Origin: Minisyncoccota bacterium
Lineage (GTDB): Bacteria > Patescibacteriota > Minisyncoccia > Phycocordibacterales > UBA9973
Reading direction: 5' to 3'
Assembly (NCBI GenBank): GCA_041662525.1
Contig: JBAZSF010000002.1
Coordinates: forward strand, 90,196-154,195
Length of the DNA stretch: 64,000 nucleotides
The notes beneath the pieces are model-generated. The model ran no database searches. It saw only the letters and a list, made by a program, of their open reading frames with translations, and was not told the origin of the DNA. The position numbers were made by a program, and so were the translations under genes. This document shows positions 3,265-63,997 of the stretch, piece after piece; position 1 is the first letter of the stretch, and each line of letters begins with the position of its first letter.

Positions 3265-4320
3265 TTACTGACTCTCTAAAAACTGAAATATTTTTTCGTT
3301 AGTGAGGACATTTTCGGCGTGCATGCGGGCGCGTTCAGGGTCTGCGTCTTTGTAGTGTTCTAAGATTGCTGCGACTTCGTTGGCTACTTGCTCGTCGTCG
3401 GCGACTATCTTTTCTACTTTCGCTATTTCATTTAATATGAGAGCAAGCTTGGCTTTTTTCTCGGCATCAGTTCTGAATTCTTTTCTTAAATCTTCTTTTG
3501 TTTTATTTAAATGTTTTAGATAATCCTCAAACTTTAAGCCCATTTGGGTGATGTCGGACTCCATGCGATATAAAATCTTATCCAATTCAATTTCCACTAA
3601 AATTTCAGGCAAGTCCACTTGACTACCCTCCACTATTTCTTCAATGATTTTTAAGCGAGTTTTTTCTTTTTGCTGATTCTCTTTTTCTAGTTTTATATTT
3701 TCCTTAAGCTTGATTTTAAAATCTTCTACATCTTTAAAGGGACCAAGGCCTTTCACAAAGTTATCGTTAAGTTCAGGTATTTCTGGTTCTGGATGAACAT
3801 GTTCCTCTCCCTCCTTGTGTTCATGCTCTGCCATATGCACTTTGGGAGCGCGAGATTTCCGGATGTCCATGATGGTATTATCTAAATCTTCATCAGAGAC
3901 AACGATGTTTTTCTCAGTCTCAGTAACATCCCCGATTATTTTTTTAGAGATATTTTTATATTCAGGGAGTTTTATTTCCGGCAAAATAGCAGTTTTAATT
4001 TTAAAACCTAGAGGGTTTTTGCGCGCTAATTTTATAATAGAAATTTCTGGCCTGCCTATAACATCTATTTTCTCATCTTCAATAATTTTTGGATAATGTT
4101 CGCTCAAAGCCATCTCTGCCATTTCTTCCAAAATAGCAATTTCTGGTATATTGGAAAGCAAAACATTCTCTGGTACTTTGCCTTTTCGGAAACCGTCTAA
4201 TTTTACATTTTCACCGAGCTTTTTTAAAGCTTTTGCGTAATAAGACTCAAATATTTCAGAATCAATTTCACCTTCTATTTCTACTTCACTTTGCGGGAGT
4301 TTTTTAATTGTTGTTTTCAT
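3265..4320 (-). CDS. tig: trigger factor (short form)
   Basis: The N-terminal ribosome-binding motif GFRKGKVP is present, together with trigger-factor N and C domains. Confidence 0.8.
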   Translation of the reverse strand: MKTTIKKLPQSEVEIEGEIDSEIFESYYAKALKKLGENVKLDGFRKGKVPENVLLSNIPEIAILEEMAEMALSEHYPKIIEDEKIDVIGRPEISIIKLARKNPLGFKIKTAILPEIKLPEYKNISKKIIGDVTETEKNIVVSDEDLDNTIMDIRKSRAPKVHMAEHEHKEGEEHVHPEPEIPELNDNFVKGLGPFKDVEDFKIKLKENIKLEKENQQKEKTRLKIIEEIVEGSQVDLPEILVEIELDKILYRMESDITQMGLKFEDYLKHLNKTKEDLRKEFRTDAEKKAKLALILNEIAKVEKIVADDEQVANEVAAILEHYKDADPERARMHAENVLTNEKIFQFLESQ

Positions 4321-4359
4321 AGTTTTTTTAGTCTATATTTTTTTATGTTTTTTGTCAAA

Positions 4360-4396
4360 ATAAAAATCCCCGGAATATCCGGGGATTTTTATTTTG
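4360..4396 (-). terminator. rho-independent terminator
   Basis: aaaaatccccgg-aatat-ccggggattttt, a perfect hairpin with flanking T runs. Confidence 0.75.
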
Positions 4397-10966: not shown

Positions 10967-11052
10967 CTCTTCGAATTTACTTAGGGCAAATTAATAAAAT
11001 AAAATTAACAAAAAATTCCCTTATTAGGGAATTTTTTGTTATAATACAAGTA

Positions 11053-46567: not shown

Positions 46568-46580
46568 AAAAGATAAAATA

Positions 46581-46608
46581 AAAAATCCCCGAAAGGGGAT
46601 TTTTTATT
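46581..46608. terminator. bidirectional terminator
   Basis: aaaaatcccc-gaaa-ggggattttt lies between convergent rpsR and efp. Confidence 0.8.
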
Positions 46609-47187
46609 TTAAACTCTCTCTACATATTCTCCTGTTTCCGTATTTACTCGGATAATGTCTCCCTCGTTGATGAACATCGGAGTAGTGAGGGTGGCACCGT
46701 TTTCTAAAGTGATAACTTTATTGCCTCCTTTAGAAGTGTCTCCACGGACAGCTGGAGGGGCTTCTTTAACTTTAAATTCCATTTTGATAGGTAAGGTTAT
46801 TTTTATTATTACTTCTTCATCATCATTGTCCCAGATTAAGGCAGTTACATTTCCATTTTGTTTAAAGAATTTGGCAGTATTTCCAACAAGGTTCTCATCT
46901 AATTTAAATCTATTGCTTTTATCATTTGGGTCACAGAACCAATATTCGCCTTTATTATGATAAAGAAAAGTAATGTCTCTCTTAATAATATCCGCTTCCT
47001 CGGCTGATTCAGCTGCATGAAAAGTAGCAGGGAAGACCTTGCCAGATATTAAACTTCTTAGTTTAACCTGATTTTGTGGTTTGCGTTGTTGGGTACGAGC
47101 AACGTGAGATTCTATCACTTCGCAGGGTTCATCATTATGTATAATTATTTTCTTTTCGCGAATGTCGCTGTATTCTAATTTAGCCAT
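46609..47187 (-). CDS. efp: elongation factor P
   Basis: The N-terminal KOW domain aligns with EF-P, and OB domains follow. Confidence 0.85.
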   Translation of the reverse strand: MAKLEYSDIREKKIIIHNDEPCEVIESHVARTQQRKPQNQVKLRSLISGKVFPATFHAAESAEEADIIKRDITFLYHNKGEYWFCDPNDKSNRFKLDENLVGNTAKFFKQNGNVTALIWDNDDEEVIIKITLPIKMEFKVKEAPPAVRGDTSKGGNKVITLENGATLTTPMFINEGDIIRVNTETGEYVERV

Positions 47188-54797: not shown

Positions 54798-54855
54798 TTA
54801 GAAGCTAGTTTACTTAGATAAATCAGTTCTGGTTAATACGCCTTAAAAAGTATTC

Positions 54856-54890
54856 AAAAAACCACTCTTAATTGAGTGGTTTTTTGTTTG
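54856..54890 (+). terminator. rho-independent terminator
   Basis: aaaaaccactc-ttaatt-gagtggttttt. Confidence 0.8.
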
Positions 54891-57058: not shown

Positions 57059-57100
57059 AAAACCCCGTCGCTCACGAGCGACGGGGTTTTGTTTTTGTGG
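57059..57100 (+). terminator. rho-independent terminator
   Basis: aaaaccccgtcgctc-acg-agcgacggggttttgttttt. Confidence 0.85.
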
Positions 57101-57313: not shown

Positions 57314-57335
57314 TTAACATTTCCCCTAAGCTGTT

Positions 57336-57354
57336 TCGGACGTCCAACGTCCGA
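57336..57354 (+). repeat. REP hairpin copy 1
   Basis: tcggacgtccaacgtccga, preceded by tttcccctaagc. Confidence 0.8.
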
Positions 57355-57433
57355 ATAAGAATATCCACAGAAATGCGGGTATTCTTATTATTTTATGAGA
57401 TAATAGATAAATTATATTTATATTTTAAAACTT

Positions 57434-57452
57434 TCGGACGTCCAACGTCCGA
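57434..57452 (+). repeat. REP hairpin copy 2 (extended arms aaactttcggacgt / acgtccgaaa..gttt)
   Basis: Identical 19-mer, 21 bp upstream of the RAYT start codon. Confidence 0.8.
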
Positions 57453-57472
57453 AAAAAAGTTTATTATTTTGT

Positions 57473-58132
57473 ATGAGAAAAGATCCACTTATAACCAACC
57501 AATATTATCATATCTATAATAGGGGAGTTGATAAAAGAGATATTTTTATGAATGAAGCTGATCTTAATAGGTTTGTTTTAAGTGTTAAGAAATTCAATGA
57601 TATTGATCCTATAGGTAGTATAAAAGATTTAATGCTGAAAAAACCAGAGGATTCGGACGTTGGACGTCCGAATCCTCTGGTTTCGATAGTTTGTTATTGT
57701 TTTAATCCAAATCATTTTCATTTTATTATAAAACAGGAGGTGGACGGTGGTATTTCTGAATTTTTAAAGCGTTTGCTTGGTGGATATACAAAATATTTTA
57801 ATTTGACCCACAAAAGAAGTGGTGCATTGTTTCAAGGAAGGTTTAAATCAAACTTAATAGACGATAATGCATATTTTTTAAAAATTCGACCGTATGTTCA
57901 TTTAAATTATTTAGTGCACGATATTCCAAAGGAAAAAATGCACTTAGTTTTATCAAGTGAAAAAGAATACAATATGGGTGATTTCGTTATTGTTGAAGAA
58001 AAAGAGGCAAAAGAACTTTTAGATTTTTATAATGGTAACGAAAATTTTAAGAAAGAGTGTTTAGATGTAATTTCTTTTATTAAAGAAGAAAGAAAATTAA
58101 ATTTTTCTTTAGAAGAGGATCTATTTATATAA
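57473..58132 (+). CDS. REP-associated tyrosine transposase (RAYT; IS200/IS605 TnpA-like, HUH/Y1)
   Basis: YYHIYNRG N-terminal motif, HUH motif NHFHFII and GGYTKYFN...ALFQGRF (Y...Q.RF) C-terminal catalytic-Tyr motif. It is flanked by REPs. Confidence 0.7.
   Translation: MRKDPLITNQYYHIYNRGVDKRDIFMNEADLNRFVLSVKKFNDIDPIGSIKDLMLKKPEDSDVGRPNPLVSIVCYCFNPNHFHFIIKQEVDGGISEFLKRLLGGYTKYFNLTHKRSGALFQGRFKSNLIDDNAYFLKIRPYVHLNYLVHDIPKEKMHLVLSSEKEYNMGDFVIVEEKEAKELLDFYNGNENFKKECLDVISFIKEERKLNFSLEEDLFI
57647..57677 (+). repeat. REP copy 3: 31-bp perfect palindrome inside the RAYT ORF (in-frame)
   Basis: gaggattcggacgt-tgg-acgtccgaatcctc, encoding PEDSDVGRPNPLV. Confidence 0.8.
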
Positions 58133-58135
58133 AAT

Positions 58136-58154
58136 TCGGACGTCCAACGTCCGA
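58136..58154 (+). repeat. REP hairpin copy 4
   Basis: tcggacgtccaacgtccga, 4 bp after the RAYT stop. Confidence 0.8.
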
Positions 58155-58212
58155 AAGAAAAGTTTTCCACAATTTTTTTTGTAATTTATTTTATTTTTTA
58201 TATAATTTAAAA

Positions 58213-58882: not shown

Positions 58883-61800
58883 ATGAAAAATAGAATATGG
58901 TTTATTTTTGTTCTGGTTTTGTTCTTTTTATTTTGTTTTAAAGATGTTTCAGCGAGCGAACTATGTTCACCAAAAGGATATAGTATTTTTACTGTAAATG
59001 GAATATTGAATAGTGAAATTGATGCTATAAAAAATAAAGATAAATTAAAAAGTAAATTTCCGCCCACTTACAATAACGAACCTTTGATTATTGACTACCT
59101 CTACAACCCCACCCATCTTGCTGGAGCAGGGGATTTGATTGATGCAGTAAAACAAGGGCTTTTTGATCAAAAATCCGATTATGATTTAGTAGAAATGTTG
59201 AATGATGCAAGTCAAAAAGTTACCACTCAAAAAGTATTACTCGTTGCTCATTCGCAGGGTAATTTTTATGCAAACAATTTTTATGACAAAGTTGCCGACC
59301 AAGAAGGGGGAGTCCCTGGTCAGTCTATAGGTATATATGGCGTAGCAAGTCCCGCAAACCGTGTCGCTGGCGGAGGAAAATATTTAACTTCTAATACCGA
59401 TAATGTTATTGCTACTATGGTAGCACGTTATATTAAAATTTTATCACCCAATATTCACATATCACTTTCAAGTAATGATGATAGAAATGGTCATGATTTT
59501 TCTGGCGTGTATTTAAAATATCAAGGAGACAGAATCGTTTCTGATATTAAATCCTCACTTAATAAATTAAAAGATAATGATGAGCAAGATTCCAGAGAAC
59601 CTTGCATATCTCCGCCAGAACTTTCTACGCTTCACAAAGTGCAAGGTCTAGCTTTTGCTGTGGCTGATCCAACAGCCAATTTTACTAAAACAGTTGCTGT
59701 TAAAACTGCCCTTGGTTCATATAAAATTGCTTCAGCCATTGGAAATGGTGTGTTAGGAGGGGTGAATTTAGTTGCTAATTCTATTTCTTCATTTACCAAA
59801 AATACAAAAGGATTGGTACCTAACAACGACGCGGGAGTAGTTTTATCTAATGGCGAGACATCTTCAAATACTAATAGTGCAAATCCAACGAACAGTACCC
59901 CAAAAAGTTCTATTGTTTCACAGATTACAAATAAAATAAAAACATTAGCGATGGGGATAGTTGATCCAAATTCTGTATCAGCTGAGAATAACGAAGATTC
60001 TTCTTTGCCTGCGCCTGTATCTATTCCTGAGAATATTGATAGCATTGATTCTATAAGTAGTGAAAATAATACAAGCGGGAGTAATGGCGGTGGTAGTGGA
60101 GGGGAAGTTGTTTTACCTGTTGAGCCTACTTTAGACACTATTCCTCCCGTCGTAATTGAACCCGAGATTATTCCTCCAGTTGTAGAACCCACACTAGTTG
60201 TAGATATTATTTCACCCGTCATCACTATTCTCGGAAATAATCCCACAGAAATTATAAAAGATACTATTTACACTGATGCTGGAGCGACTGCGCTGGATGA
60301 TATTGATGGAGTACGAGATGTCGTTGCTACAGGATTTGTAGATGTTGCTGTTGTTGGCACTTATATTATAACTTACACCGCGACTGATTTGTCTCAAAAT
60401 ATTGCGACCGTGACACGAACTGTAAATGTTGTTGCCCTTCCAGTGGTTGAAGAAGAAATTATTCCAATTATTCCACCGGTTCCAGAGGAAGAAGTTTTGC
60501 CTCCGCTTCCACCAACTCCTCCTCCGCTCAATACTGTTACGATAAATGAAAACACTACATTAGCTCCAGGCGAATACAATTATGATAATTTAATTATCAC
60601 TAACAATGCAGTTTTAACCCTCGAAGGAGACCCAACTTCTTTAAACGATTTTAAAGGAGTAAAAATAAATGCTGTGAATATTACCATTGATGCTGGTTCA
60701 TTAATTTCTGCTGATGGAAAAGGATATGGTCCCAATCAGGGTCCGGGTGCCGGGGAAGATGTATCTGCTATTTCAAACCCTGGCGCAAGTTATGGAGGAG
60801 CTAGTTCTGGTAATTCTAATGAAACAATTTATGGTTCAGCCACTCATCCAATTGATTTAGGTAGTGGTGGAATTACATATGGTGGCGGAGCTATCCGTAT
60901 TATGGTCTCTGATACTTTTACAAATAATGGAATTGTTTCTGTTAATGGAAATACCTCAAGTAGTGGTGGCAGTATTTATGTGACAGCGAAAGACATAGGA
61001 GGTAGTGGAGTATTTCGATCTAATGGTGGAGGTCTTTATGCGGGGAATTATTGGAAAAGCCCGGGCGCAGGAGGACGAGTCGCTATTTATTATCAGACTT
61101 CATCTTTTGGTGGAACTGCCGAAGCAAAAGGAGGATGTGGTAGTTATGATGGATGGAGCATGTCTTGCTCGCAAAATGGCACTGTAGGTCTTTTTGATGA
61201 ATCGGCAAATAATCTTTATATTAATAATTATTGGAATTTCCAAAAAAATGATAGTCCATTTAATTTCAATAATATTATTTTAACAGGAGCGAAAGTAATA
61301 ATTGATGATGGTACAGAAATTAATGCGAGTGGTATTATTCTCGACAAAGCTTCAACATTTACTCTTTCTGGCGAAGAAATTATTAACGTAGGAACCCTTT
61401 CTCTTTTAGGAAATTCAGATATTACTATAATTCCTGAAAAGATACTTTCTTTGAAAGTTTCAAATCTTAATATTGAAAAAGGTTCGACAATCTTTGCTGA
61501 TGACAAAGGGTACGTTAATGGACCCGGAACTTCCGAAATATATGGTGAAGCTGGGGCGAGCTACGGAGGTAAAGGAGGTGGCGCAACAGCCAAACCAGCT
61601 TATGGTTCTGATGTAGCACCGGCAGACTTCGGTAGTGGGACGGAGGGTCGTCGTGGTGGCGGGGCTATTCGCTTAATAGTGGATAATAATTTTAAAAATG
61701 ATGGTATCGTTTCAGCTAGTGGAATTTCAGAGCGTGTTAGCGGAGGCAGTATTTATGTAACAGCAAATAATATAAGCGGTAACGGTGTTTTTAAAGCAAA

Positions 61801-62671
61801 TGGTGGAAGTAGTTCTTGGCCTTATGGACCTATCGGGGGTGGGGGTGGAAGAATAGCAATTCATTATAAAACTTCTGATTTTTCTGGAACGACAAATGTT
61901 TTGTCTGGTATTTATTGTTTTTATGGTTGTGCTCCAGCGGGAGAGGCAGGCACTGTTAAAATGATAGATGATTCAATTCCAATTCTACCTCCGCCGGCTT
62001 CTCCGATTCTTAGTTCTGCAAAAATTATCACAACATTTAATTTTTCAAACTTAACACTGAACGTTATTGGAGTTCTAGATGAAACTAATCACAATGTTTC
62101 TTTAACTGTTCCTTTTAGTACTGATGTAAAAACTCTTGTTCCTACTATTACAATTTCAGAAAAAGCTTCAATCAATCCAAACACAGAGGTAGCGCAAGAC
62201 TTTACTAGTCCAGTTACTTATACAGTTACTGCCGAAGATGGCTCTACACAGAATTATGTTGTGGCGGTTTTGATTACTCCTGCTCCTGAACCTGAGCCTG
62301 AACCAGAACCTACTCCAGACATCACTCCGCCTTCAATTACGAGTTATACGTTCAATGGCGTAGCGGGTAACATTACGACTGATCCGTTAACAAATCCTGT
62401 GTCTATTGTTTTAACTGCCAATGAAAAAGTAAATTGGACTTCTATAAAAATTGAAAATCAAGATAATCCAAGCATTCATAAATATTTTTATGACGGTGCA
62501 AATTGTGTTAACGGTACTGATACTTGTACTAAAATTTGGAACGGAGAAACTTTTGGCGGAACTTTGCAAAATGGCATATATAAAATTAAAATAAAAATGA
62601 AAGATTTAGCTGGCAATGATTTCAATGATTATCTTTTCCCTTATGTAATTACAATAAACACCCATATTTAG
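58883..62671 (+). CDS. giant secreted surface protein (N-terminal alpha/beta-hydrolase-like GxSxG module, duplicated Gly-rich beta-helix modules, PEPEPEPE linker, Cys-containing C-terminal domain)
   Basis: Signal peptide. LLVAHSQGNFY nucleophile-elbow motif. Two ~140-aa internal paralogous modules (…DGKGYGPNQGPGAGE…GGAIRIMVSD… and …DDKGYVNGPGTSE…GGAIRLIVDN…). The PEPEPEPEPTPD motif follows. Confidence 0.7.
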   Translation: MKNRIWFIFVLVLFFLFCFKDVSASELCSPKGYSIFTVNGILNSEIDAIKNKDKLKSKFPPTYNNEPLIIDYLYNPTHLAGAGDLIDAVKQGLFDQKSDYDLVEMLNDASQKVTTQKVLLVAHSQGNFYANNFYDKVADQEGGVPGQSIGIYGVASPANRVAGGGKYLTSNTDNVIATMVARYIKILSPNIHISLSSNDDRNGHDFSGVYLKYQGDRIVSDIKSSLNKLKDNDEQDSREPCISPPELSTLHKVQGLAFAVADPTANFTKTVAVKTALGSYKIASAIGNGVLGGVNLVANSISSFTKNTKGLVPNNDAGVVLSNGETSSNTNSANPTNSTPKSSIVSQITNKIKTLAMGIVDPNSVSAENNEDSSLPAPVSIPENIDSIDSISSENNTSGSNGGGSGGEVVLPVEPTLDTIPPVVIEPEIIPPVVEPTLVVDIISPVITILGNNPTEIIKDTIYTDAGATALDDIDGVRDVVATGFVDVAVVGTYIITYTATDLSQNIATVTRTVNVVALPVVEEEIIPIIPPVPEEEVLPPLPPTPPPLNTVTINENTTLAPGEYNYDNLIITNNAVLTLEGDPTSLNDFKGVKINAVNITIDAGSLISADGKGYGPNQGPGAGEDVSAISNPGASYGGASSGNSNETIYGSATHPIDLGSGGITYGGGAIRIMVSDTFTNNGIVSVNGNTSSSGGSIYVTAKDIGGSGVFRSNGGGLYAGNYWKSPGAGGRVAIYYQTSSFGGTAEAKGGCGSYDGWSMSCSQNGTVGLFDESANNLYINNYWNFQKNDSPFNFNNIILTGAKVIIDDGTEINASGIILDKASTFTLSGEEIINVGTLSLLGNSDITIIPEKILSLKVSNLNIEKGSTIFADDKGYVNGPGTSEIYGEAGASYGGKGGGATAKPAYGSDVAPADFGSGTEGRRGGGAIRLIVDNNFKNDGIVSASGISERVSGGSIYVTANNISGNGVFKANGGSSSWPYGPIGGGGGRIAIHYKTSDFSGTTNVLSGIYCFYGCAPAGEAGTVKMIDDSIPILPPPASPILSSAKIITTFNFSNLTLNVIGVLDETNHNVSLTVPFSTDVKTLVPTITISEKASINPNTEVAQDFTSPVTYTVTAEDGSTQNYVVAVLITPAPEPEPEPEPTPDITPPSITSYTFNGVAGNITTDPLTNPVSIVLTANEKVNWTSIKIENQDNPSIHKYFYDGANCVNGTDTCTKIWNGETFGGTLQNGIYKIKIKMKDLAGNDFNDYLFPYVITINTHI

Positions 62672-62699
62672 TTTCCCCTAAGCCGGGCTTAGGGGAAAC
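62671..62699 (+). terminator. hairpin gtttcccctaagc-cgg-gcttaggggaaac
   Basis: Perfect 13-bp stem. The same tttcccctaagc half-site precedes REP copy 1. Confidence 0.5.
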
Positions 62700-62724
62700 C
62701 TGTCGGGTGTTGGACACCCGACAG
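62700..62724 (+). repeat. REP-like variant hairpin (ctgTCGGGTGTtggACACCCGAcag) with compensatory substitutions
   Basis: Relative to the REP, a>g and c>t changes in one arm are matched by g>a and t>c changes in the other. Confidence 0.6.
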
Positions 62725-62914
62725 CTGTTCTTGCTTCAAATATTTGAATTATAGTATAATTAAACCATGGTTACCAAACATTTCTTTAAGGTTCTGACGA
62801 TTTTTGCATCAATGATAATTCTAGGATTAATTGTGCTTTTAGCTACAGAATATTTTGGTGAGCAGGCAGTACAGGCAACGAATACAGATAGTCAAAATCA
62901 GGTTGCAAAGTAAA

Positions 62915-63025
62915 GGGAATATGGTATATTAATGATACCGCAGAGAAAGCAGGCAAACCTTAAGTCCTGTTTAGTGGGTCGATAAAGCGGTTTTTACCGT
63001 TTTTTTAATTTTATATTTAAAAAAA
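62915..63025 (+). promoter_or_regulatory. possible L10 leader / promoter region
   Basis: A 110-nt untranslated region upstream of rplJ with a small attenuator-like hairpin. The position is the one expected of the L10(L12) autoregulatory leader. Structure not verified. Confidence 0.25.
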
Positions 63026-63964: not shown

Positions 63965-63997
63965 AAAAAAAACGGAAGCATTGCTTCCGTTTTTTTT
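63965..63997 (+). terminator. rho-independent terminator
   Basis: aaaaaaaacggaagc-att-gcttccgtttttttt. Confidence 0.85.

Follow-up and report, generated by a model that had tools for sequence, protein, structure and literature searches.

The window analysed here, a stretch of 64,000 nucleotides (64 kb) from a Minisyncoccota bacterium, carries a surface-protein gene whose stop codon runs directly into two adjoining perfect hairpins (62671–62724), which we term hpA (13 bp, loop CGG) and hpB (11 bp, loop TGG). The two lie between that stop codon and an open reading frame (ORF) of 48 amino acids, and the first base of hpA is itself the G of the TAG stop (62669–62671). We consider it highly probable that this doublet joins two different elements of the repetitive extragenic palindrome (REP) type, each linked to REP-associated tyrosine transposases (RAYTs), with hpA belonging to a family here called REP-A and hpB to a type here called B2. 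Both hairpins are copies of REP families; the stem to which hpB belongs exists in two states, each accompanied by RAYTs of matching type; and the two hairpins differ in their presence at the orthologous site of a syntenic relative, L173 (loci collected for comparison are given L numbers). The features at the doublet are as follows.

58883 to 62671, plus strand: surface-protein gene, 1262 amino acids, with Ig-like and DUF5018 domains; upstream of the doublet.
62671 to 62699, strand not applicable: hpA, a perfect 13-bp hairpin, GTTTCCCCTAAGC-cgg-GCTTAGGGGAAAC; copy of the REP-A family.
62700 to 62724, strand not applicable: hpB, a perfect 11-bp hairpin, CTGTCGGGTGT-tgg-ACACCCGACAG; copy of REP type B2.
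62767 to 62913, plus strand: small ORF of 48 amino acids, downstream of the doublet, with homologs in L037 and L173.

Folding of 62660–62745 as RNA returns exactly the two stems, at -40.8 kcal/mol (z = -6.0), a stability reached by none of 200 shuffled sequences; as DNA, the doublet folds at about -27 kcal/mol on either strand (z of about -9). An Rfam scan of 56.5–64 kb at E ≤ 1 gave two chance-level matches, none of them at hpA or hpB.

The designation of these hairpins as REPs rests on a RAYT gene at 57473–58132, which the initial annotation of this DNA had left unmentioned. This gene, RAYT1, is surrounded and also interrupted in frame by copies of a palindrome that we call REP-B1, lying at -137, -39, +180 (within the gene) and +663 relative to its start. 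Its left flank further contains a 12-mer that recurs in hpA.

57320 to 57331, plus strand: 12-mer TTTCCCCTAAGC, a REP-A hairpin of which the left arm remains as a relic, bordering the RAYT cassette on the left.
57335 to 57355, strand not applicable: REP-B1 copy 1, TTCGGACGT-cca-ACGTCCGAA, upstream of the RAYT gene; conserved in L037 with the loop flipped.
57432 to 57454, strand not applicable: REP-B1 copy 2, 39 nt 5' of the RAYT start codon.
57473 to 58132, plus strand: RAYT1 gene, 219 amino acids, a Y1/HUH transposase with H81, H83, Y141 and K107.
57641 to 57683, strand not applicable: in-gene REP-B1 copy, in frame within the RAYT gene; a perfect palindrome with 20-bp arms, encoding …KKPEDSDVGRPNPLV….
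58135 to 58155, strand not applicable: REP-B1 copy 4, 2 nt past the RAYT stop; right edge of the cassette.

RAYT1 matches the Pfam Y1_Tnp model (26.4 bits against a cutoff of 23, E = 8e-6) and, weakly, the NCBIfam REP_Tyr_transpos model (24.9 bits against a cutoff of 80). Residues H81, H83 and Y141 are invariant in 18 RAYT homologs and align with the HUH motif and the IQKYI tyrosine of ISDra2 TnpA. A profile of the RAYTs matched ISDra2 TnpA (2xm3, E = 0.07) and TnpA(REP) (4er8, E = 0.38) weakly among PDB structures, and a phmmer search with RAYT1 against PDB sequences found no match. In a Candidatus Paceibacterota metagenome-assembled genome (MAG), the source annotation names the gene 'REP element-mobilizing transposase RayT'.

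The kinship of hpB with the REPs at 57.3–58.2 kb, which had been asserted from the resemblance of the two stems, is borne out by counts. The B1 core, TCGGACGT-NNN-ACGTCCGA, occurs at four sites in the window (57336, 57434, 57653 and 58136) against 0.02 expected, and the more permissive scaffold TCGGNNGTNNNACNNCCGA, with at most one mismatch, picks out precisely five window sites, namely the four B1 copies and hpB, against 0.01 expected. Relative to the B1 core, hpB has GT for AC in the left arm and AC for GT in the right arm, so that both changes keep the pairing, just as had been claimed of two substitutions in each arm; the next pair outward is compensated as well, being T-A in the B1 copies and G-C in hpB. 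The TGG loop with which the local REP had been quoted is right for the copy at 57653 and wrong for the other three, which have CCA.

What hpB is became apparent beyond the window. It is an exact copy of a type, B2, of the form TCGGGTGT-TGG/CCA-ACACCCGA, and the exact core of hpB, TCGGGTGTTGGACACC[C/T]GA, was counted at least 161 times across no fewer than 119 metagenome contigs (788 kb, with a median GC of 37%); the listed contigs bearing B2 carry just three B1 copies. Among the matches listed, the loop is TGG in 80 copies and CCA in 78, several copies are clustered or form inverted doublets, the outer CTG…CAG pairs of hpB are the commonest B2 flank (22 of 151), and the whole 25 nt of hpB are identical to the commonest B2 form of unrelated metagenomes. 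The exact B1 core, for its part, is found at 52 loci in GTDB genomes, mostly of Patescibacteria (Paceibacterota, Saccharibacteria, Nomurabacteria and others). The family is thus dispersed, as had been supposed from the window alone. Across all the DNA collected, 243 of 246 non-redundant scaffold matches have AC/GT or GT/AC at the variable pairs and are fully paired, and a genuine intermediate, with a G·T wobble, is represented by a single match (L153). A degenerate REP copy in L037 also has AT at the type-defining positions. B1 and B2 are hence two discrete sister types of one family, two compensated pairs apart, and not points on a continuum. They lie side by side in L046, L082 and L105, suggesting that the two can coexist, whether active or tolerated. 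The view of hpB as a drifting variant of the local REP gives way, in consequence, to that of an exact copy of a distinct type that elsewhere has its own RAYT variant.

That pairing of REP type with RAYT variant is regular. About 20 loci encode homologs of RAYT1 that are 70–84% identical to the window protein. Fifteen of these genes are associated with B2 copies only, lying upstream (about -43 or -150 to -170), inside the gene (+180) and downstream of it (+664), and four loci (the window, L037, L012 and L053) have B1 copies only; at every RAYT1 locus examined, the upstream, in-gene and downstream REPs are of one type. Each REP type therefore accompanies its own RAYT1 variant, and the single type per locus implies that the types are inherited or propagated as units. 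In MAG JBAZRK01, L012 is the only one of the REP-bearing loci with a RAYT.

Throughout the RAYT1 homologs the in-gene REP keeps its codon position (+180), and its type always agrees with that of the flanking copies. In the window it is translated as …EDSDVGRPNP…, and across homologs the peptide tracks the type, SDV[G/Q]RP for B1 becoming SGV[G/Q]HP for B2. In 12 orthologs of this site the core stem is always paired and the two type-defining pairs switch together, and compensated changes peculiar to individual lineages, among them GAGGAT/ATCCTC, GCCCCG/CGGGGC and GCCTTG/CAAGGC, are found in the outer stem; altogether, both partners have changed in 9 of the 20 pairs. Covariation scores 0.242, a value that none of 500 shuffled alignments reaches (0.115 for shuffles), and slid registers score far lower. 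The proposal that the stem evolves under structural constraint, and that an alignment of further copies would reveal paired compensatory changes at the variable positions, thus finds support both in the scaffold matches and at this orthologous site. The loop behaves differently from the stem: at all three positions shared by the window and L037 (57336, 57653 and 58136) TGG and CCA are inverted while the stems are identical, which in the in-gene copy swaps the encoded residue from G to Q. Since the loops differ between orthologous copies, the loop inverts freely. The habit of harboring a REP in the gene is not confined to RAYT1, for RAYT clades only 33–37% identical (L031/L033, L155 and L173) also have their own REP within the gene, at other positions.

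One residue of the transposase separates the two types. Residue 107 (codon 57791–57793) is K, in the context GGYT-K-YFN, in four of four loci with B1, and N, in the context GGYT-N-YFN, in 16 of 16 loci with B2; K is also found in the more distant RAYT2 clade, described below, and in L100. As this is the sole position not encoded by the REP itself within a conserved motif that distinguishes B1 from B2 RAYTs, K107N is a candidate specificity determinant. A neighbor-joining tree of the RAYTs does not group the B1 genes and is poorly resolved; we considered repeated type switching on the strength of this tree and set it aside, its resolution being too low, and K107N could be one historical event.

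The hairpin preceding hpB has a different ancestry. An exact search for hpA, extended to near-exact matches, returned none in the other 1.2 Mb of collected loci and none in IMG/VR viral contigs, and its family relation rests instead on the pattern of its outer stem and on L173. The outer stem of hpA is that of the REP-A family, TTTCCCCT-variable inner stem-AGGGGAAA, whose members flank the genes of RAYT2, a RAYT clade 37% identical to the window RAYT (L113, L123, L130, L155 and L159). Examples are TTTCCCACATGT-cag-ACATGTGGGAAA, TTCCCCTATGT-cag-ACATAGGGGAA and GCCTTCCCCTACAC-ctg-GTGTAGGGGAAGGC, and a related hairpin whose outer stem matches hpA also lies within the RAYT2 coding sequence (L113/L155 and L173). 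We conclude that hpA belongs to a third REP family, the one cognate to RAYT2. The initial annotation was correct that the sequence directly before REP copy 1 is shared with this hairpin: the 12-mer lies exactly at 57320, 4 nt before that copy, and again at 62672 and, on the opposite strand, at 62687, these latter two being the arms of hpA. Its reading of the shared sequence as a half-site of the same REP is the part that falls, because the hairpin belongs to a third family with another RAYT clade, of which the 12-mer is a truncated relic.

The case for a relic comes from comparison with relatives of the RAYT locus. L173, found through the L7/L12 protein of the window, is syntenic with it at 78–84% nucleotide identity. 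Its RAYT locus holds RAYT2 with REP-A hairpins upstream (together with a half copy), in frame within the gene (TTTCCCCTAAAC-ctg-GTTTAGGGGAAA) and downstream. Homology between the window and L173 stops at 57328, inside the 12-mer, and restarts at 58159, just past REP copy 4, so that between syntenic flanks a non-homologous cassette (RAYT1/REP-B1 at 57329–58158 of the window, RAYT2/REP-A at 3851–4627 of L173) has its breakpoints in a REP arm on the left and directly after the 3' REP on the right. Where the window has the 12-mer, both L173 and L155 have the REP-A hairpin in full, after a homologous small membrane-protein gene, whose product in L155 is 52% identical to that of the window (E = 1e-22) and whose region in L173 is about 80% identical in nucleotides. 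The locus is syntenic in L037, L173 and L155, yet the cassette type differs, which implies replacement. Given that homology breaks inside the 12-mer and that two relatives have the complete hairpin there, the 12-mer is a REP-A hairpin reduced to its left arm, at a place where a RAYT2/REP-A cassette gave way to a RAYT1/REP-B1 one; this relic at the cassette edge accounts for the sequence shared between hpA and the site before REP copy 1.

A motif resembling a DnaA box, TT[AT]TCCACA, lies 8–10 nt from RAYT-proximal REPs in the window (58159–58171, GTTTTCCACAATT; 57362–57370, ATATCCACA) and in L037, L011, L012, L155 and L173. Ahead of the predicted promoter of the next gene (TTGTAA-16-TATAAT, 58179–58206), the motif at 58163 is conserved even across cassette types. 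We rejected an interpretation of these motifs in terms of DnaA boxes or a replication origin, as they occur only at RAYT-proximal copies and the one at 58163 belongs to the conserved upstream DNA of the next gene, outside the dispersed REP.

At the doublet itself, L173 has an hpA-type hairpin, TTTCCCCTTCAC-tag-GTGAAGGGGAAA, 5 nt past the stop codon of the orthologous surface-protein gene, with the 48-amino-acid ORF following 15 nt further on. By position hpA is orthologous to this hairpin, the differences in the inner stem being compensated. The orthologous spacer of L173, of 47 nt against 95 nt in the window, contains no B-type hairpin; as L173 thus has the hpA-type hairpin without hpB, hpB is restricted to the window lineage. 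No hpB was found at the orthologous site of L037 either. The L037 site does not serve as a clean empty site for hpB, since an unrelated 14-bp hairpin, GGAGGACTGGCCTC-ctagat-GAGGCCAGTCCTCC, occupies the orthologous position (L037 908–941, corresponding to about 62672 of the window) after the surface-protein gene. The A/T-run of that hairpin is placed where it would act as a terminator for antisense transcription.

From these comparisons, hpA, as a REP-A copy, most probably already stood at the site in the common ancestor with L173, and a B2 copy, hpB, is present directly 3' of it only in the lineage of the window. The hairpins would presumably be recognized and moved as single-stranded DNA by a RAYT, on the model of the IS200/IS605 transposases and of E. 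coli TnpA(REP) (PMC2817692; PMC3479197; PMC3733652). Lying right after the stop codon, the doublet would give the transcript a 3' end with two hairpins of great stability.

Several other origins for the doublet deserve consideration. That hpA and hpB are a purpose-built Rho-independent terminator, resembling REPs by coincidence, would suit their place directly past a stop codon and their stable GC-rich stems; a consensus scan indeed flags hpB as terminator-like (5 T in 8 nt), and L037 and L173 have a hairpin there too. Such a coincidence is nevertheless very improbable when hpB is, base for base, a member of a repeat that is found on more than 100 contigs and flanks RAYT genes, when the outer stem of hpA is common to the REPs flanking RAYT2, when neither hairpin has the A-tract/hairpin/T-tract layout of the clear terminators of this genome, and when about 45% of the family copies sit within ORFs, where termination would be harmful. 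This evidence counts against an origin independent of REPs and leaves an exapted terminator role untouched. Patescibacteria are thought to depend on DNA uptake, and short, exact and over-represented palindromes, often in inverted pairs at gene ends like DNA-uptake sequences and uptake signal sequences (DUS/USS), might be read as binding or uptake signals or as operators instead of transposase substrates. We find this scarcely credible in view of the tight, type-matched physical link to RAYT genes, including a copy inside the gene, and of the existence of three unrelated palindrome families, each with its own RAYT clade; moreover, the free flipping of the loop fits an element defined by hairpin structure rather than an oriented sequence signal.

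A REP identity for hpB could still be reconciled with other routes to its present site. Taken literally, the initial annotation would have hpB arise in situ from a resident B1 copy by stepwise compensatory mutation. The distance is short, at two compensated pairs (three with the closing pair), and the G·T-type intermediate of L153 and the degenerate L037 copy might mark steps along the way. We give this route very little credence nonetheless: intermediates amount to one in 246 scaffold matches, the mutations would have had to arrive at exactly the B2 form that is commonest in unrelated metagenomes among the matches listed, the closest relatives lack any B-type hairpin from which to start, and the REPs at each RAYT locus are all of one type. 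Alternatively, instead of being inserted in this genome by a RAYT, hpB or the whole intergenic tract may have been acquired from a relative with a B2-type RAYT, through homologous recombination or horizontal transfer, and persisted as a passive relic. The resident RAYT is of the B1 type (K107) and the window has no B2-type RAYT, the RAYT cassette was itself exchanged as a block, and the 3' end of the surface-protein gene with its spacer is poorly conserved among relatives, all of which would sit well with such an import. Against this, the view spans 64 kb of genome, so that a second RAYT may exist, and other genomes have B1 and B2 as neighbors; we regard the import as unlikely, while granting it some weight.

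Certain observations also weigh against our preferred reading of the doublet as a pair of RAYT-linked REPs. The 64-kb window has a single RAYT, of B1 type, and none of B2 or A type, so that hpA and hpB are without a cognate enzyme in view and may be relics or rely on an enzyme encoded elsewhere. Of the elements themselves, it contains a single complete B2 copy and one and a half copies of A. No clean pair of filled and empty sites, showing a target duplication or a well-defined junction, turned up for hpB. The near absence of intermediates between B1 and B2 is in part a matter of ascertainment, because the scans of genomes (with the B1 core) and of metagenomes (with the B2 core) required perfect palindromes, and only the extra copies inside the loci were unselected. 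Neither a GTAG nor a terminal CGTC tag is present, the flanks being CTG/CAG for hpB and T/A for B1. Finally, the tail after hpB, CTGTTCTTGC, is a weak T-tract, which passes a loose terminator scan (5 T in 8 nt) but is interrupted.

The last point leads to the possible role of the doublet in RNA. The clear terminators of the window, at 4356–4396, 11006–11041, 46574–46611, 54855–54886, 57059–57090 and 63965–63997, consist of an A-tract, a GC stem and a T-tract in symmetric arrangement; they look like bidirectional terminators and are distinct from the REP hairpins, of which hpA is without any T tail. Comparative support for a 3'-hairpin role comes from three relatives: directly past the stop codon of the surface-protein gene, a strong hairpin stands in the window, in L173 and in L037, with different sequences. 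REPs of E. coli protect the mRNA upstream of them. The doublet probably shields the surface-protein mRNA from 3'-exonucleases; it may also contribute to the termination of that transcript.

Beyond this site, the placement of the B family combines gene ends with gene interiors. Between co-directional genes, B copies lie a median of 16 nt past the upstream stop (RAYT-proximal copies included), and for roughly one B copy in four, another unit, complete or partial, lies no more than 45 nt away. Some 43–49% lie deep inside long ORFs, against 70–73% of random positions. The copies in ORFs are in frame and free of stops, in genes such as those for UvrB, GatB, topoisomerase I (TopA), LeuRS, a Mur ligase, LepA, PurL and a NifS-like desulfurase, and some recur at the identical protein site across contigs. 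Loci with in-gene REPs in essential genes are L046 (1202–1258); L055, L108, L119 and L168; L058, L083 and L084; and L002, L028, L062, L074, L118 and L128. The in-gene REPs are read in several frames, giving SGVGHPT, VGCPTPE, FRVSNTR and other peptides. The hairpins hpA and hpB are themselves extragenic.

In the neighborhood of the doublet, the 48-amino-acid ORF (62767–62913), which has a hydrophobic core (MVTKHFFKVLTIFASMIILGLIVLL…), is conserved in the window, L037 and L173, with the surface-protein gene on one side and rplJ on the other, and found no match in a Pfam search. A conserved non-coding stretch further on, upstream of rplJ (62930–63010; …accgcagagaaagcaggcaaacc…tagtgggtcgataaagcggtttttaccgttttttt), is shared with L037 and ends in a small hairpin and T-run; it found no match in Rfam (E ≤ 1) and is probably an L10 leader. 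In L037, additional hairpin-rich DNA is inserted between this leader-like stretch and rplJ.

The closest known parallels are the REP/REPIN-RAYT systems of Proteobacteria, such as TnpA(REP) of E. coli and the REPINs of Pseudomonas (Nunvar, 2010, PMC2817692; Bertels, 2011, PMC3116915; Bertels, 2017, PMC5581495). Like them, the elements described here are short, GC-rich, repeated palindromes whose types are paired with RAYT variants; they have a Y1/HUH gene flanked by cognate repeats, they form doublets, and their intergenic copies cluster at the 3' ends of genes, and the RAYT stands at a conserved syntenic locus, consistent with vertical inheritance. Unlike them, they are perfect palindromes without a GTAG tag, with a 3-nt loop that flips between TGG and CCA; about 45% of the copies are in frame within genes, the RAYT gene contains its own REP in frame, and the doublet is heterotypic, drawn from two unrelated families. 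Copy number appears low, with about 15 exact copies in one nearly complete relative and five in the window. Having neither a GTAG nor a CGTC tag, the elements fall outside both of the classical superfamilies named after these tags (PMC3733652).

A dedicated transposase is lacking in the CGTC elements, among them the Rickettsia palindromic elements (RPEs) (Di Nocera, 2013, PMC3733652). The palindromes described here resemble RPEs in lying in frame in housekeeping genes that are not destroyed, and in residing in small, reduced genomes of host-dependent bacteria; they differ from the RPEs, which are longer and CGTC-tagged, in lacking the CGTC end tag and in being clearly linked to RAYTs. The likeness, which applies to the B family and the window RAYT gene and not to hpA and hpB, is a functional one for which no homology is claimed, sequence similarity to RPEs having been neither found nor expected. 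With the IS200/IS605 elements (TnpA of IS608 and ISDra2) the system shares the catalytic HUH and Tyr residues, hairpins at both ends of the gene and a unit of about 0.8 kb exchanged as a block; it departs from them in that the hairpins far outnumber the gene, that one RAYT locus is found per window or genome sampled, at a syntenic rather than scattered position, and that tnpB is absent. Rho-independent terminators and REP-type stabilizers share with the doublet the presence of stable GC-rich stem-loops directly past a stop codon, whereas the doublet has no proper U-tract, and the typical terminators of this genome look different. The doublet is therefore best described as a heterotypic REP doublet, and the system as REP/RAYT-like, with most of the defining features of that class apart from the tag and with a family that is not strictly extragenic. 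For annotators, this means that hairpins like those at 62671–62724 should not be taken for ordinary terminators.

More interesting than the hairpin pair itself is the RAYT biology that surrounds it. To our knowledge, REP/RAYT systems have been studied almost entirely in Proteobacteria. A full-text search, in a limited literature set that is no proof of absence, found no description of REPs in Patescibacteria or the candidate phyla radiation (CPR). We tentatively suggest, as a possibility that still leaves considerable room for doubt, that Patescibacteria possess a REP-RAYT system with four traits: an in-frame, constrained cognate REP in every RAYT; a switch of specificity type (ACGT or GTGT in the inner stem) accompanied by the one change K107N beside the conserved YxxYFN motif; cassette replacement at one fixed locus; and in-frame colonization of housekeeping genes. 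The doublet would then be a fossil of successive RAYT regimes, that of A followed by that of B2 and/or B1. In this system, the B1/B2 pair, with RAYTs that are 75–80% identical and consistently differ at one residue, offers a handle on how Y1 transposases read hairpins. The in-frame REP in RAYT genes of clades 33–37% identical points to a possible regulatory or 'master copy' arrangement; no in-gene REP of this kind was found described for the classical RAYTs. In-frame REPs in essential genes of these ultra-small genomes, in turn, parallel the RPEs, but with an identifiable candidate transposase.

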